From contig NC_073377.1 in the NCBI RefSeq assembly GCF_028641065.1, positions 169,959,752 through 170,006,000 of the forward strand: a stretch of 46,249 bases of DNA, read 5' to 3'. This document shows, piece after piece, positions 14,195 to 36,815 of the stretch. Under the pieces are notes generated by a model. The model did no database searches, was not told the DNA's origin, and worked only from the letters and a program-made list of their open reading frames with translations. Position 1 is the first letter of the stretch. Each line of letters starts with the position of its first letter. Source of the stretch: Leucoraja erinacea. Lineage: Eukaryota. Both the position numbers and the translations under genes were made by a program.

Positions 14195-14575
14195 TGGGAC
14201 CTCATTGAAACTTACCGAATAGTGAAAGGCCTGGATACAGTGAATGTGGAGAGGATGTTTCCACTAGTGGGAGAGTCTAGGACCAGAGGTCACAGCCTCA
14301 GAATTAAAGGATGTTCCTTTAGGAAGGAGATGAGGAGGAATTTCTTTAGTCAGAGGGTGGTGAATCTGTGGAATTCATTGCCACAGAAGGCTGTGGAAGC
14401 CAAGTCATTTGACATTTTTAAGGCAGAGATAGATAGATTATTGGGTGTCAGGGATTATGGGGATAAGGCAAAAGAATTGGGTTAAGAGGGAAAGAAAGAT
14501 CATCTATGATTGAATGGCAGAGTAGACTTGATGGGCCGAATGGCCTAATTCTACTCCTATCACATGAACTTATGA
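14195..14575 (+). mobile_element. CR1 LINE 3' end
   Basis: DLIETYRIVKGLD...[11 protein letters not shown]...RRNFFSQRVVNLWNSLP plus the GGGCCGAATGGCCT tail. Confidence 0.9.
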
Positions 14576-14626
14576 AGGGAATGTGAAGTTCCTGTTCAGA
14601 TCTGAAGTTCATGGTTGATGGAGAGA

Positions 14627-15049
14627 TGATAGTTCTCCCCATGATAGCTCTCCCCTCTCCCCATGATAGCTCTCCCCATGATAGATAGCTCTCCCCATGA
14701 TAGATAGCTCTCCCCATGATAGATATCTCTCCCCATGATAGATATCTCTCCCCATGATATCTCTCCCCATGATATCTCTCCCCATGATAGATATCTCTCC
14801 CCACGATATCTCTCCCCACGATATCTCTCCCCACGATATCTCTCCCCACGATAGATAGCTCTCCCCACGATAGATAGCTCTCCCCACGATAGATAGCTCT
14901 CCCCACGATATCTCTCCCCATGATAGATAGCTCTCCCCATGATAGCTCTCCCCATGATGATAGCTCTCCCCATGATAGCTCTCCCCATGATAGATCTCTC
15001 CCCATGATAGCTCTCCCCATGATATCTCTCCCCATGATATCTCTCCCCT
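14627..15049. repeat. Minisatellite of ~15/19-bp units CTCTCCCCAYGATA(GATA)K
   Basis: Seen directly; it is the source of the three overlapping repetitive minus-strand ORFs. Confidence 0.95.
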
Positions 15050-15585
15050 ACTCTCTGCCAGTGAAGTATAAAGCGATCCCAGATCATTTTGGCTCACACA
15101 TCACCTTCACCTCTCACCACCACCACCATCTCCAGAGCCGTTAGCAACGGGCAATAAATGCTGCATGGTACACGACACCCACATCACACAGAAGGGGTAG
15201 TCATTTATATATTACTTTTAATGAAATGAAGCATTCTCAGTGTTCATGAGGGCTATCACTAAACAAACTATGACACTGAAGATTTGGTCTGACAAACCCC
15301 TTGGAATGGAAACGTTAGCTGTGTTTCTCTTTCCTCTAATGCTACCTGACCTGTTGCATATTTCTAGTATTTAGATTTTGTTTTGGACTTCCATCATTGA
15401 CAGTTTTGATTTTCACAATAGATTAGTTGGTGTCTGTAACACAACATGACAACATAGGCCATTATTTCTATGAGAGAAAATCAAAGTGGATTAATTTGCC
15501 ATGAGCTTAAATGCCTGCAAGAAGCAACAACATACACCTGCCGTGTTCCACTATTTAAACTTGAGTATACCTGAGTTGTTATAGG

Positions 15586-22385: not shown

Positions 22386-22562
22386 NNNNNNNNNNNNNNN
22401 NNNNNNNNNNNNNNNNNNNNNNNNNNNNNNNNNNNNNNNNNNNNNNNNNNNNNNNNNNNNNNNNNNNNNNNNNNNNNNNNNNNNNNNNNNNNNNNNNNNN
22501 NNNNNNNNNNNNNNNNNNNNNNNNNNNNNNNNNNNNNNNNNNNNNNNNNNNNNNNNNNNNNN
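22386..22562. other. Assembly gap (177 N)
   Basis: Run of N. Confidence 1.
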
Positions 22563-23566: not shown

Positions 23567-25058
23567 GTCTTGTGGACAAATGAGATGAAGATTAACTTAT
23601 ATCAGAGTGATGGCAAGAGCAAAGTATAGAGGAGAGAAGGAGCTGCCCAAGATCCAAAGCATGCCACCTCATCTGTGAAACACAGTGGTGGGGGTGTTAT
23701 GGCCTGGGCATGTATGGCTGCTGAAGGTACTGACTCACTTATCTTCATTGATGATACAACTGCTGATGGTAGTAGGATAATGAATTCTGAAGTGTACAGA
23801 CACATCCTATCTGCTCAAGTTCAAACAAATGCCTCAAAACCCATTGGCCAGCGGTTCATTCTACAACAAGACAATGATCCCAAACATACTGCTAAAGCAA
23901 CAAAGGAGTTTTTCAAAGCTAAAAAATGGTAAATTCTTGAGTGGCCAAGTCAACCTGACCTGAACCCAATTGAGCATGCCTTTCATATGCTGAAGAGAAA
24001 ACTGAAAGGGACTAGCCCCCAAAACAAACATAAACTAAAGATGGCTGCAATACAGGCCTGGTAGAGCATCACCAGAGAAGACACCCAGCAACTGGTGATG
24101 TCCATGAATCGCAGACTTCAAGCAGTCATTGCATGCAAAGGATATGTAACACAATACTAAACATGATCACTTTCATTTACATGACATTGCTGTGTCCCAA
24201 ACATTATGGTGCCCTGAAATGGAGGGGACTATGTATAAACACTGCTGTAATTTCTACATGGTGAAACCAAAATGTATAAAAATGACCTTTATTAACATCT
24301 GACAATGTACACTTTAACCACATGTGATTATTTATATTACAAATTTCAAATTGTGGAGTTCAGAGGTAAATAAATAAATGATGGGTCTTTGTCCCAAACA
24401 TTATGGAGGGCACTGTACGTGTGTTTGGAGAATATGTGGTGCAGGGAAGGAGTGGATTGGGGTAAAAGACGAGATATAAGATTGATGTAGGATTCATAGG
24501 GGTAGGTACTTGATCATCGGCATAGAAGCAATGGCTTGATATTGGAGACACAAGGAACATAAGGGAAGGAGGAAGTGGGTGATGAGAGCTGAGAGTGTTT
24601 AGATGGAGAACATGGAAAGTGGCCCTTTCTCCCAATGGAAATCAAGGAGTAACAAATCCTTATTAATCTCAGAATCTCTGCCACCTGTACTCACATCCTG
24701 CCAAGAGATGAGGTGTTAGGGTTTGTGAGAGTCACTCCTGGTGAGATACATCTAAAACCTCAGTTTGCACAAAAGGTATGTCTTTATAAACATTCACAAT
24801 GTGTCAGTAGTCGCATCTTTTGAGTAATTCTCACTTAACCAAGACACCAAAGAGAATCAGACCATTAAGTGTACCTTGACACAAATCTTTATTGTCAAGT
24901 CCCTAATGGAACTGTTACTGTGAAATATGGGAAATACTTAATGACAAATTATTAATGTAAGACTAACAAAGTCTGATCACAATCTGAAAGAATATAATTT
25001 AAACTGTTTTAACACAATGCAGTAAAATTATGCGTCTGTTTATTTCTTTGCATTACAG

Positions 25059-26029
25059 GGACAGCCCAGGAACTGGCAACCGCGAGGAGTCAAGCTCTCC
25101 AGAACGTGAGAAGTCCCAGAATGATGGCACAGAATCCGGGCATGATGCCGATGTCATCGGTCCAGAACACCAGTGCGATACCAGTCACCACTGGGCAGTC
25201 AGAGATTAGCATTGTGCCCTACAATAATGCCCAGAGCAATCAACAAGGAATGTACAGTATCAGTCCAGGCATGAACCAAATTCTTCAGCATTCAAACCAA
25301 AGTAATGCAACCATGGCACGTAACGTGAGCCAGATGCAGAAACAGCCTGTTGCAGGACAAGGGGTTGGAATGGCACCTGGTTATGGACAAAACTTACTTG
25401 GAAACCCTGTGTTGGCCCAACAGCAGCAAGTGAAAGGACCAGTAGGGCAGCAGATGTCCAAGGCTCAAGTTCAAAGACTACAACTAATGGCAAGTTCTGG
25501 TTCTCCTGCTCAGAGTTGGCAGCAACACAGTTCACAGAGCCTGCCCAATAGAACTCAGGCTAACAATGAGCTCAATCCATTCAACAACAAATCAGTTTAT
25601 CCATTGCAACCTGGTCAACCCAAGATGACCAAGCAACATTTTTCCCAGGCAATGGGTCAGCCAATTCTAGAGTCTGCTGCTGCTGTTGGAGGACAAATGA
25701 TGCCTCATTTTGGAGGACAGCCAAGGACCAACCAGTCGAGACAAATAGTTATGTCTGGCATGACCCAGACAGTCCACAATATGGCTGGTTTTAACCAGGC
25801 CACAGGCCAACAATTGGCAGGAGGCTGCTATGCACAAAGTAACCCAAGTCAAGTGTATCATACAAGAACCACAGGTCAGGACTTGTCCTTCAATTATGCC
25901 GGTCAATCAGGGGCTGGCTCCTTCTCTAATTTATCAGACAGTGTCGCTCTGATGGACTCTCTAATCAAAAGTGGATCAACGGAAGGCTGGATACAAGAGT
26001 TTGATGAAATATTTGGCAGCCAGCAGTAG
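25059..26029 (+). CDS. MAML3: Mastermind-like protein 3, terminal coding exon with the C-terminal acidic activation domain
   Basis: Acceptor tttatttctttgcattacag|GG is phase 1 and completes G|GG from the previous exon. Reads TAQELATARSQALQNVRSPRMMAQN... to DSLIKSGSTEGWIQEFDEIFGSQQ-TAG, colinear with recalled human MAML3 (SPQDIAAVRSQAALQSMRTSRLMAQN...DSIIKGGPGDEWMQELDELFGNP). Confidence 0.95.
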
Positions 26030-31791: not shown

Positions 31792-32790
31792 AGCAAAGAG
31801 TAGGAGTGAACGGGTCCTTTTCAGAATGGCTGGCAGTGGCGAGTGGAGTGCCGCAAGGCTCGGTGTTGGGGCCGCAACTGTTTACCGTATATATTAATGA
31901 TTTGGAAGAGGGAATTAGGAGCAACACTAGCAGGTTTGCGAATGACACAAAGCTGGGTGGCAGTGTGAACTGTGAAGAGATTGTTAGGAGGTTGCAGGGT
32001 GACCTGGACAGGTTGAGTGAGTCGGCAGATGCGTGGCAGATGCAGTATAATATAGATAAATGTGAGGTTATCCACTTTGGCGGCAAAAACAAGGGGGCAG
32101 ATTATTATCTCAATGGGGTTAGGTTAGGTAAGGTGGAGGTGCAGAGAGACCTGGGTGTCCTTGTACACCAGTCACTGTAAGTTGGCGTGCAGGTACAGCA
32201 GGCAGTGATGAAAGCTAATGGAATGTTGGCCTTCATAACAAGTGGATTTCAGTTATCGGAGTAAAGAGGTTCTTCTGCAGTTGTATAGGGCTCTGGTGAG
32301 ACCACATCTGGAGTATTGTGTACAGTTTTGGTCTCCTAATTTGAGGAAGGACATCCTTGTGATTGAGGCAGTGCAGCGTAGGTTCACAAGCTTGATCCCT
32401 GGGATGGCGGGACTGTCATACGAGGAAAGATTGAAAAGACTAGGCTTGTATTCACTGGAGTTTAGAAGGAGGGGGAATCTTATAGAAACATATAAAATTA
32501 TAAAAGGACTGGACAAGCTAGATGCAGGAAAATGTTCCCAATGTTGGGCGAGTCCAGAACCAGGGGCCACAGTCTTAGAATAAAGGGGAGGTCATTTAAG
32601 ACGAAGGTGAGAAAAAACTTTTTCACCCAGAGAGTTGTGAATTTATGGAATTCCCTGCCACAGAGGGCAGTGGAGACCAAGTCACTGGATGGATTTAAGA
32701 GAGAGTTAGATAGAGCTCTAGGGGCTAGTGGAATCAAGGGATATGGGGAGAAAGCAGGCACAGGTTATTGACAGGGGACGATCAGCCATT
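31792..32790 (+). mobile_element. CR1 LINE, 5'-truncated (RT C-terminal half to 3' UTR), pseudogenised
   Basis: SGVPQGSVLGP, FANDTKL (catalytic D to N), [15 protein letters not shown] and FFTQRVVNLWNSLP, spread over several frames. Confidence 0.93.
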
Positions 32791-32794
32791 ATCT

Positions 32795-33620
32795 CAATTA
32801 ATTTTTAAAAAGGGAGGGAGAGAGAAAACGGGGAATTACAGACCAGTCAGTCTAACGTCGGTAGTGGGGAAACTGCTAGAGTCGGTTATTAAAGATGGGA
32901 TAGCAGCACATTTGGAAAGTGGTGAAATCATTGGACAAAGTCAGCATGGATTTATGAAAGGTAAATCATGTCTGACGAATCTTATAGAATTCTTCGAGGA
33001 TGTAGCTAGTAGAGTGGATGAGGGAGAACCAGTGGATGTGTTATATCTAGACTTTCAGAAGGCTTTCGACAAGGTCCCACATAAGTGATTAGTATACAAA
33101 CTTAAAGCACACGGTATTGGGGGTTGAGTATTGATGTGGATAGAGAACTGGCTGGCAGACAGGAAGCAAAGAGTAGGAGTAAACGGGTCCTTTTCACAAT
33201 GGCAGGCAGTGACTAGTGGGGTACCGCAAGGATCAGTTCTGGGACCCCAGCTATTTACAATATATATTAATGATTTGGACGAGGGAATTGAATGCAACAT
33301 CTCCAAATTTGCGGATGACACGAAGCTGGGGGGCAGTGTTAGCTGTGAGGAGGATGTTAGGAGGCTGCAAGGTGACTTGGATAGGCTGGGTGAGTGGGCA
33401 AATGCATGGCAGATGCAGTATAATGTGGATAAATGTGAGGTTATCCATTTTGGTGGCAAAAACAGGAAAGTAGACTATTATCTAAATGGTGGCCGATTAG
33501 GAAAGGGGGAGATGCAACGAGACCTGGGTGTCATGGTACACCAGTCATTAAAAGTAGGCATGCAGGTGCAGCAGGATTTGAGTATAGGAGCAGGGAGGTT
33601 CTGCTGCAGTTGTACAGGGT
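32795..33620 (+). mobile_element. Second CR1 LINE RT fragment
   Basis: NYRPVSLTS, QHGF, YLDFQKAFDKVPH, GVPQGSVLGP and KFADDTKL, with in-frame stops. Confidence 0.93.
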
Positions 33621-33857
33621 CATCGCACCAAAGCTTCATTTGTTCTCCACAGATATCCTTGATCTGCTGAGGGCTCCTAGTTTATTTTCTGTCTTTGTTT
33701 CAGATTTCCAACATTTTCTTTGCTTTTCAATCCCTGTCTTATTTTAATGTAACTCATGTTTTTCTCTCTCTCCTCAGGTGTCGGGAGATTAACAGGATCC
33801 CCCACCATTTTAGATTCCCACCAGCTGTTCTCTTCCCCACCTCACAGTTCCTGCAGA

Positions 33858-34228: not shown

Positions 34229-34562
34229 TCCAGCAGAACTTTTGCCTTCCTTCCTCTGCCCTCACGCTATTCACAATTCCTTCAAACAAATTAGCTGCCA
34301 TTAACAATCCTTCAGCAGCTTTTGGTGCTATCCCCGTGAATCTACCAATCTGTGCCATGCATCAACACTGGGTTTCCACACAATTAAAGACGTTTGATTT
34401 TTTTCTCCACCTCTACAAATTAAAATATGTCTGCTTTCTAAATCTGTCACTGCTCTGAATTCACATGTCACTGATCTTATCGAACATAGAACAGTTCAGC
34501 GCAAGAACAGGCCCTTCCGTCCACAATGTCTATGCTGAACATTATGCAAGACCACCTCTTAT

Positions 34563-36418
34563 TAGCAATGTTACAACATTTTGAGATTTTAAAAATCAAG
34601 TCTGCAATTTATCCCATCAGATAAAGCATAAAAATAAGTTTAATTTGACACATAATTCACTTTCATATCTTCAGTATTAAAAAAGTTATGGCCATTTTCA
34701 TACTTGGAAATTAGCATCTTGTTCCCTATTGTTTTTCCATTGACTTTACACAAAAGCTGTGATCGAGGACAGTCAAAAGCCCATAACTTTCTTAAAAATT
34801 ACGAGAACCGAATGAAATTTTCAGTTATTATAGATTGAAGCATTCTGAAACAAATATGAAACATCTTACTTGGATGACCTGAAATTAAAGCACATAATTA
34901 GTTAATTACCTAATTGTAGTCAATTGACCGTTGTGACGAAATAGTAATAAACACCCAGACTGCCTTGAAAATTCAAAAATGTGATATTCTCAAGATCAGA
35001 ACTTTAATATTATTATATTATATGCTGTAAATCCGTAACAGGTAGGTAAATAAATTACAATTTCTAGCAATAGACCAAGTCTTTATGGAGAAGATCAGCT
35101 CCTAGCTGGTACATTGGTATATCATAATCAGTAGCATCATCATATTCCTCAGATTGTAACCAATAAACAACTCTGTACACCTTGTTTTTCCTCAACTTTT
35201 CAATTTTTGCTCTTCAAACCACGCATGACATGCTTTTCTGCCCACTACTTTCCCATTAACAATGTCCTGTAGATCATCACATTTGGAGTAGTCCAAATTT
35301 GGATAATCTCTGCGAATGCTGTCTAAATCAGTCTCTTTTGCTGGGCATTTGGATTGACAATTTTGCATTTCTTCTTCGGAGAAATCTGTTTAAAATGTAA
35401 AGGAAAAAAACCCTGAACAGCATTAACAGAAACAAGTTATTATTTGCAGTTTTAGAAAAAAGGTAGAAATTATAAAGTTAAACGCTAAAACAAATAGTAA
35501 ATACCCAACAAAAAATTCAGTTTCATCTAATCAATTAAATTCATCTAATCAATTAAATTCATCTAAATTCAATTACTAGATCTAAACATCTATTCATTTC
35601 TTAAGAAAAGGATATTTTTTTTTAAATAGCCAAAGTATCCAAATAACAAACAAATGCCATTCACACAAGAATTCACAATATAACATGACTTTTAAATCTC
35701 ACTGTCATGAATTTATATGCCAGATGGAAGGAATTTAATGTTTAATTTCCATAAATTAATCTGGAAACATCCACTCTCTATATAATCAAAATGACTATTT
35801 ATTGCACAATACATGTGACTAAAACAGTTGTGGTTATTTAGTATAAAATATTAATAATGGATAGGCAATAACACAAAATATAGACGATTTAGATCCTCAT
35901 GACATGATCGTCCAAATAAAATGAGGGTTTAAATCATCTTGCGAGTGGGCGTTTCTGGAATGTGATTGATTGGAACGTTGCTGTTGCCATGAATTTAAAC
36001 CCCATATCGGCAGGCAAAGACACTGCCGGTTCGTACGGGGCCCAAATAACATTTTTGCGTCGTAAAATTTGATTAAAGCCGCCCCAAGATCAAGATTATA
36101 TGTGAAATAAACGACTTACCTTTTATTTTGTCCTGATATTACGATCCATCACGTTGTAGGCGTTGAGGGCGTTCGAAGTCGCCTTTTATTTTAATCCAAC
36201 TATTAAATTGTCCAGCGATTTTTAAATTTTTTAAAACTGGGAACGGAAGTCCGATCGATTTTTCTTCATCGACTAGCAGCTGGAGGAAATCCCTCTCCGA
36301 CAAGCGATACAAACCTGCACTTTAATCCCCCCCCCCCCCCCCCTCAAAGGCGTCAAAGTCACGTACACGGCCATTGGCAGAACTGCAGCCGCTGAAGGTA
36401 GGTTTGGTAATGTCACTA
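34563..36418 (-). mobile_element. 1856-bp non-autonomous TIR DNA transposon (TAG...CTA termini, 7-bp TSD) inserted in a CR1 3' end
   Basis: CTCTTAT at 34556-34562 and 36419-36425. Imperfect TIRs: TAGCAATGTTACAA on the left versus TAGTGACATTACCA (reverse complement of the right end). Host CR1 tail (34482-34562) resumes at 36426. Confidence 0.8.
35064..35385 (-). pseudogene. Frameshifted terminal exon of a transposon-borne gene with a Tudor/Spindlin-like domain
   Basis: Acceptor tttttttcctttacattttaaacag|AT, then FSEEEMQNCQSKCPAKETDLDSIRRDYPNLDYSKCDDLQDIVNGKVVGRKACHAWFEEQK / frameshift / AKIEKLRKNKVYRVVYWLQSEEYDDATDYDIPMYQLGADLLHKDLVYC-TAG. The domain call is by pattern only. Confidence 0.6.
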
Positions 36419-36815
36419 CTCTTATCTACCTGTATTAATCCATATCTGCATATACATATACTTATCCAAAAGTCTCTTAAATGCCACTGTCGTATCTGTA
36501 TCAACCCCGGCAGCGTGTTCCAGGCGCTCATCACCTTCTGTGTTAAAAAGTTGCACTTCAGAACCTCTTTAAACTTTGCTCCTCTCACCTTAAAGGCTTG
36601 CCCTCTGGTATTTGATTTTTCCATCCTGAGAACAAGGTTCAGATTGTCTACCCAAACAATGTATCTCATAATTTTACATACTTCAATCAGGTCTCCCTGC
36701 AGCCTCTGGCGTTCCAGAGATGTAAATACTGTGTGTACTTAAGCTCCATTCCTGAATCTGACACTGACACTAAGAGAAAACAATCCAAGTCTGTCCAACC
36801 TCTTCTTGTAGCCAG
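36419..36815 (-). mobile_element. CR1 LINE 3' end (host of the 34563-36418 element)
   Basis: SNTRGQAFKVRGAKFK...FLTQKVMSAWNTLPG. Confidence 0.82.

Follow-up and report, generated by a model that had tools for sequence, protein, structure and literature searches.

The window, a 46,249-nt stretch of the Leucoraja erinacea genome, contains two exons of a mastermind-like (MAML) gene on the forward strand (6666-7094 and 25013-26029; Pfam PF20801, MAML1_3_TAD2 matching at 25013-26026) and, ~8.5 kb beyond its final coding stretch, a member of an abundant family of 1.86-kb non-autonomous transposons (34563-36418), whose insertion is not seen to interrupt any frame. A tandem array is situated near 14.4-15.1 kb (14448-15100), one N block is present (22386-22562), and fragments with the ORF appearance of LINE-type reverse transcriptases flank the element at 31794-33670 and 36420-36740.

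The ends of the element, which the initial annotation had placed at 34563 and 36418, are confirmed by a perfect 7-bp target-site duplication (CTCTTAT; 34556-34562 on the left and 36419-36425 on the right), 7 bp being the rule in this family, while the right end itself is too decayed to be recognized by the end motif. On the minus strand, the element comprises the 5' terminal inverted repeat (36403-36418), of which 10 of 16 positions match the other end and which is intact in sister copies, a non-coding first exon or 5' subterminal region (36120-36402), a GT-AG intron (35386-36119), transposase codons 1-15 (35341-35385), codons 880-977 with the stop codon (35064-35338), a 3' untranslated and subterminal region (34579-35063), and the 3' terminal inverted repeat (34563-34578; TAGCAATGTTACAACA on the plus strand), an end common to the full-length elements. 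Codons 1-15 begin with ATT in the window copy, where 42 of 54 sisters have ATG, and codons 880-977 are the remnant of a Spindlin/Tudor-like C-terminal domain, identified by tblastn and by its predicted fold. Between these two coding pieces (35339/35340) lies the founding breakpoint of the non-autonomous family, at which the ends were joined out of frame after the loss of codons 16-879, the whole catalytic core, amounting to ~2.6 kb of a 4.26-kb element.

When the window is aligned to the full-length element, residues 1-15 fall at 35385-35341 in one block and residues 880-977 at 35338-35067 in a second, and the stretch from 35338 down to 34563 shares 88% identity with the 3' end of the full-length locus L043. 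As aligned by tblastn with the full-length protein P0004, residues 880-925 are found at 35338-35201 (89%) and residues 926-977 at 35222-35067 (87%). A terminal exon of about 107 codons, broken by a frameshift near 35205, had been read from this region; its two halves do meet near 35207, but its first ~16 residues (DFSEEEMQNCQSKCPA) come from the wrong frame of the transposase start, whose correct translation is ISPKKKCKIVNPNAQ (residues 1-15), and homologues thus align only from about query residue 15. The small microhomology deletion suspected at the frameshift is borne out by the majority of copies, relative to which the window copy has lost 22 nt between two CAAAA words (35207/35208). This copy-specific deletion shifts the frame and takes out most of the second strand of the domain, including the conserved Tyr928, while the lost bases are present on a loose contig end of sequencing run X1. 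The window copy, 95.1% identical to the majority sequence of the short copies, makes no functional protein and is an ordinary dead deletion copy.

The splice signals proposed for the minus strand hold, with the consensus donor G|GTAAGT at 36120, the acceptor AG at 35386 and an AT-rich intron of 734 nt (~730 nt in the initial annotation). In the long copies the transposase ATG directly follows the acceptor AG, and the intron therefore sits in the 5' UTR of the transposase gene. Both donor and acceptor are kept in diverged full-length subfamilies, the donor across subfamilies ~70-80% alike. A coding upstream exon, as had been suggested, is ruled out, since, even in the majority sequence, the proposed frame lacks a Met and is interrupted by two stops, and in the full-length L043 no ATG-led frame reaches the donor. 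The joint 35385/36120 (CT..AC ends) is carried by one contig of run X4 (depth 5.6) and, with one base variant, by contigs of X2, X3 and X4 (depth 229, 154 and 101), all three runs being from one study whose RNA status is guessed, with two flagged as probably DNA. As the short side of the joint measures just 23-29 nt, these contigs could stem from long or short copies; none of the spliced contigs reaches the deletion joint. An intron-less (retro-processed) DNA copy was considered as the source of the joint and rejected, with 0 genome matches to one pattern at up to 2 mismatches. The junction, for which spanning reads had been suggested as a check, is seen in the contigs of three runs and in 0 of 1513 mapped raw poly(A) reads of X24 (6% of that run, from another organism), and in the first read mapping the joint was not among the best 15 of the 84 joints listed. 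A real, spliced 5'-UTR intron is moderately supported. Within the intron, a short tandem duplication (window 35525-35575; unit ~18 nt, GATGAATTTAATTGATTA on the minus strand) is missing in the young full-length subfamily.

The parent of the short element was reached through its protein. Among 31 candidates in a search for longer proteins, the only match was P0003 (486 aa), which carries the segment at its C-terminus, after transposase-like motifs. The first 370 residues of P0003 have 123 matches in the L. erinacea genome, of which 20 loci were fetched. Thirteen of these were taken as bounded by both ends, with lengths of 4.24-4.27 kb and, in one case, 4.87 kb, and the 7-bp duplication is perfect in 11 of them and 6/7 in the other 2. 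Longer copies with the same termini, for which the initial annotation had advised a search in their autonomous form, are thus found, at 4.26 kb. One of the 20 fetched loci, L043, contains a full-length element of 4259 bp with a perfect 7-bp duplication (L043:1939-6197; G000:C964) and an unbroken single-exon frame of 977 codons (P0004). Nine other long loci share 97.7-98.6% identity with L043, which indicates that the family was recently active. This young long subfamily has a shorter leader, diverged from that of the window copy, while two decayed long copies (L138 and L145; 87-88% over ~1 kb) carry the window-type leader, so that the direct parent type is present in the genome. At L046:190-1237, a short derivative of ~1 kb lies immediately upstream of a full-length copy.

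The absence of a DDE transposase noted earlier is true of the window copy, but the full-length copies of the family have one, and the segment once assigned to an accessory gene of a transposase-less family forms the C-terminal domain of the DDE transposase (977 residues) that the family itself encodes. Relatives of P0004 number 134 among 7995 scored candidates, and those with names come from Hydra (many proteins), sponge, molluscs, echinoderms, priapulid, sea spider and teleosts. In an alignment of 81 of the best 120 of these relatives, picked mostly for near-full coverage, D428 and D505 are each conserved in 81 of 82 rows, and E783, as well as C530 and H533 of a CxxH motif (x represents any amino acid) after the second aspartate, in 82 of 82. 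The model of residues 398-977 (pLDDT 93) is all-helical between D505 and E783, and its best 11 Foldseek matches listed are all Hermes (best E 1.5e-6; TM 0.40, 10% identity), followed by the P-element transposase (E 4e-4, TM 0.22). The C-terminal 580 residues are therefore predicted to fold like the hAT transposase Hermes, and the modelled enzyme would consist of a Hermes-like catalytic core (D428, D505, CxxH at 530-533, E783), a long helix and a Tudor barrel. L043 residues ~200-345 form a long basic coiled coil, and its N-terminal half has no BED finger match.

Full-length copies combine an RNase-H-fold DDE triad, the CxxH motif with a helical insertion, and short terminal inverted repeats, as hAT elements do. 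Pfam finds neither BED nor the hAT dimerisation domain in P0004 and 12 relatives, no THAP domain (a P element feature) in P0004, and nothing meaningful in P0003; P0004 has no informative match in Pfam or in the PDB sequence search, and when single proteins or the full alignment were used to search PDB sequences, noise and coiled coils came up. The canonical hAT duplication of 8 bp is perfect in 0 of 21 short and 0 of 13 long copies. The 7-bp duplication thus excludes the canonical 8-bp hAT groups, with the hAT superfamily still open to it. Crypton- or Kolobok-like ends, a first impression, were discarded, as the ends are inverted with a 7-bp duplication. The Repbase animal hAT group hATw, first named in Hydra, has 7-bp duplications, and the literature search for its definition yielded use of the label only. 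Given the 7-bp duplication and the many Hydra relatives, the transposase family is probably already catalogued under hATw. According to the available text of PMC12730594, hAT elements usually make 8-bp duplications, 5-, 6- and fungal 7-bp subgroups occur, and hAT7 is a fungal group with 7-bp duplications which clusters with Ac/Tam3; set side by side from this description alone, hAT7 and the present family are alike in duplication length. The family resembles the hAT enzymes represented by Hermes (6dwz, 4d1q, 2bw3, 8sjd, 8edg) in its short inverted repeats and in the DDE triad with CxxH in a helical insertion, but differs from them in its 7-bp rather than 8-bp duplication, the lack of Pfam hAT and BED matches, the long N-terminal coiled coil and the C-terminal Tudor-like domain.

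P0004 shares 63-74% identity with ENA proteins, 55% with a Lytechinus protein (659 residues) and 41-46% with teleost relatives, the partners in these comparisons being P0003, P0005, P0105, P0040 and P0041. Horizontal transfer of the transposase is possible, as far as sequence comparison goes.

In 83 of 84 alignment rows, no fewer than 70 of the 95 positions of the tail are covered (the rows were selected for coverage, and some other listed relatives end earlier), and the tail is present in Hydra, mollusc, priapulid and echinoderm relatives. Its model (pLDDT 93) starts with two helices, continues with a four-strand barrel and ends in a helix and one final strand. The resemblance to Spindlin/Tudor repeats that the initial annotation had read from the sequence pattern holds at the level of the predicted fold, by Foldseek, by VIA and by a profile against PDB. 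The best 3 Foldseek matches of the tail model are Spindlin1 (E 0.012, probability 1.0, TMq 0.53), with no E below 0.001. VIA ranks the RDM15 Tudor (7de9; Z 7.1, rmsd 1.8, 57 aligned) and Spindlin-4 (Z 7.0, rmsd 2.7, 64 aligned) first, all Z values being below 8 and non-histone folds being close, namely TraI TSA (6.8, tied), CarD (5.4) and the Tn7 TnsB N-terminal domain (5.1). In the search of PDB with a 55-sequence tail profile, Spindlins account for 10 of 16 rows (best E 0.041), while hhalign gives probabilities of 31 and 16, and Atlas places PTM/DIR17 Tudor and Spin/Ssty at 0.76-0.77, values below 0.9 and hence leads only. Against the genome's own Spindlin repeat 2 the tail profile scores 8.5 bits, which was equalled or exceeded by 5 of 2000 shuffles. 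Pfam assigns no family to the tail sequences P0001 and P0002; the PF02513 cut-off is passed neither by these two nor among the 25 families listed for the 55 members, where weak Agenet (5) and PTM/DIR17 Tudor (3) matches are all that was found. Each of these lines is weak alone, yet they agree with one another, those based on structure resting on one model. The tail is thus predicted to be a Tudor-like beta barrel with a C-terminal helix, Spindlin-like at the fold level. The circumstance that was to speak against a new gene, that the exon be the C-terminal exon of a described transposase, applies insofar as the segment is a transposase C-terminus, but no Pfam family and no paper on the domain was found.

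In Spindlin1, according to the available text of PMC3967050, the aromatic cage is formed by F141, W151, Y170 and Y177, and the H3 tail is anchored by D184, D189 and E142. As aligned by sequence, W919, Y928 and Y945 of the tail correspond to F141, W151 and Y170, and 83 of 84 rows have aromatic residues there, whereas the Y177 position falls in a gapped stretch, for which Y958, with an aromatic residue in 76 of 84 rows, is a candidate equivalent. D968 and D973 correspond to D184 and D189, with an acidic residue in 82 and 79 of 84 rows, respectively, and the second half of the tail is acidic. The domain is retained by 83 of 84 aligned relatives, which range from Hydra to fish, and its residues at the cage positions are near-invariant, which points to a function under selection. 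The tail shares with the second Spin/Ssty repeat of Spindlin1-4 (PF02513; 5jsg, 7bqz, 4uy4) the predicted barrel and a C-terminal helix ending in a DL motif, along with the conserved equivalents of F141/W151/Y170 and D184/D189, but it is a single repeat fused to a transposase, with 16-20% identity, a score below the Pfam threshold, extra N-terminal helices and a longer acidic loop before the last strand.

In its own genome (2.19 Gb), the short element has 6183 first-look candidates, of which at least 40 were scored, mostly near full length and 81-90% identical; in a comparison of short with long elements, first-look candidates numbered 2180 and 201. The terminal inverted repeats are ~16 bp long (TAG...CTA). 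Among the 21 short copies whose two ends could be located by motif, out of 30 loci, 9 show a perfect 7-bp duplication and 15 show one with no more than a single mismatch, while other lengths from 2 to 11 bp are perfect in 0 of 21. By eye, the target duplications often start with C and finish with G, a weak palindromic target preference. The founding joint is common to 54 of the 56 loci examined, and the catalytic core was lost in the one event that founded the short family. The short copies are a non-autonomous deletion derivative, with ends that match the autonomous element, the core gone, and many copies with duplications of their own.

As to whether other copies restore one ORF, as the initial annotation had asked, the 115-codon frame is open in 2 of the 25 sister copies in which both exon ends were located, and the frame that is restored in L043 is the 977-codon one. 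The tail is free of stops and frameshifts in 9 of 54 short copies and frameshifted in 35 of 54. The suggested dN/dS check did not reveal constraint on the short copies, the ratio against their own majority being 1.24 (bootstrap 0.90-1.96), and variants common to at least 4 short copies comprise 2 stops and 8 amino-acid changes versus 4 silent ones. Between the majorities of the short and the long subfamily, dN/dS is 0.42, on just 14 changes. Judged by these substitution patterns, the deleted copies decay neutrally, without constraint.

We consider the locus to be, with a probability of roughly 85%, a decayed deletion copy of a 4.26-kb hAT-type element, whose remnant is the predicted Spindlin-like Tudor tail of the transposase, likely a methyl-histone reader when the enzyme is intact. 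From the anatomy of the element, transcripts of full-length copies would include the non-coding exon, the leader intron would be spliced out, and a single hAT-type enzyme would be translated, which would cut at the element ends and make the 7-bp duplications. One deletion produced the 1.86-kb form, which would have been moved in trans by the full-length enzyme to many sites and has decayed by ~5%, and the window copy bears the additional 22-nt deletion and has lost its start codon. Mobilisation of short copies in trans via their ends is the behaviour of Ac/Ds, and the present copies are like Ac/Ds-type derivatives in that deletion copies keep both ends.

A separate spliced gene for an accessory chromatin reader, carried by a transposase-less family, would agree with an intron that appears spliced, with the Tudor-like fold and with the retention of the segment by thousands of candidate copies. 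As formulated, this reading is refuted, since the segment equals transposase residues 880-977, exon 1 has stops and no ATG, homologues begin aligning only at about query residue 15, and decay is neutral. Scarcely better placed, and still very improbable, is a founding deletion that made a stand-alone Tudor protein of 109 residues, a trans competitor of the transposase or of host SPIN1 that aided the spread of the short family. In its favour, 49 of 54 short copies retain a second ATG that encodes the Met of ..EEMQNC.. and shares the frame of the tail, many open-frame copies exist (selected by protein score), and short copies are far commoner than long ones by the first-look count above. Such a protein requires leaky scanning past the true start codon, though, and neither the dN/dS of the short copies nor their shared variants favour it; the deletion joint is reached by no spliced contig, and both ends would be kept after any single deletion anyway.

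What the tail does in the intact enzyme divides the remaining readings. We regard it as about as likely as not that methylated H3 tails are bound by the modelled barrel, which would tether the transposase to chosen chromatin; the tail may tether or shield the transposase complex via a methylated basic peptide, most plausibly the H3 tail. A Tudor/SH3-like barrel that binds DNA or protein, for oligomerisation or end binding, and does not read histones is a substantial though less than even possibility: TraI TSA, CarD and the TnsB N-terminal domain score similar Z values, insertions have no CpG-island bias and the fourth cage residue is uncertain, whereas methyl-histone readers are the best matches in three methods, the aromatics at cage positions hardly vary, nor do the acidic D968/D973, and the acidic second half fits a basic tail better than DNA. 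No difference in CpG ratio or GC content separates the sequences flanking 13 long and 30 short copies from 100 background 2-kb pieces, in a comparison of weak power that later selection may also have affected (for CpG, p 0.33 for long and 0.09 for short copies), and promoter-type (H3K4me3) targeting is thus not visible. Rather than choosing landing sites, the tail might read the marks of host SPIN1 and so occupy the element's own chromatin or shield it from silencing. This idea accords with the lack of target bias in the flanks examined, with the repression by SPIN1, in mouse cells, of young transposons marked by H3K4me3 and H3K9me3, as the available text of 10.64898/2026.08.20.746118 has it, and with reader capture as a means of evasion, proposed in the available text of 10.1101/2021.11.30.470311. 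It is nevertheless unlikely, since the domain occurs in Hydra, molluscs, priapulid and echinoderms, far from the mammalian pathway, and a single repeat is unable to read two marks as SPIN1 does.

With the tail taken as part of a hAT-type transposase, a broader proposal can be put forward tentatively, with the odds somewhat against it, namely that in an animal-wide 7-bp hAT clade a Spindlin-type reader binds methylated H3 and steers or protects transposition, as a counterpart, among DNA transposons, of the chromovirus integrases. Chromodomains tether chromovirus integrases to chosen chromatin, and chromatin-guided target choice is established for retroelement integrases; to our knowledge, it has been little shown for cut-and-paste transposases. 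If the proposal is true, a recently active, single-exon, intact copy in a vertebrate genome allows a direct assay. The intact 977-codon copy and its 98%-identical sisters lend themselves to such a test, and might also be developed into a gene-delivery tool whose targeting module can be exchanged.

Mobile elements fused to readers are known, mostly with Chromo and PHD domains, and hAT-Chromo fusions occur in the sponge Ephydatia, according to the available text of 10.1101/2021.11.30.470311; the word 'spindlin' occurs 0 times in the main text of that paper, whose Supplementary Table 6 lists reader-TE fusions. The present transposase is like the chromovirus integrases and the Ephydatia hAT-Chromo proteins of the same source in having a histone-reader fold attached to an integration enzyme, but differs from those Chromo/PHD fusions in that the attached domain is a predicted Spindlin-type Tudor, which is a constant component of the enzymes of an entire clade spanning many animal phyla. 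No description of a Spindlin/Tudor domain on a transposase was found in the literature outside subscription journals, Repbase Reports and bioRxiv supplements, and the family's Spindlin-like tail, a genuine feature of a hAT branch that is probably already catalogued, appears to be undescribed.

Two further observations concern relatives of the element. P0074, a sea-spider protein named 'bric-a-brac 2', consists of this transposase and a BTB match, which may be a capture or a gene-model artefact. Other deletion joints (34919/35565, 35274/35595 and 35760/35928), seen in runs of related organisms and in the L. erinacea genome, represent several further deletion subfamilies, and the joint 35760/35928 fits the shorter leader of the young full-length subfamily.
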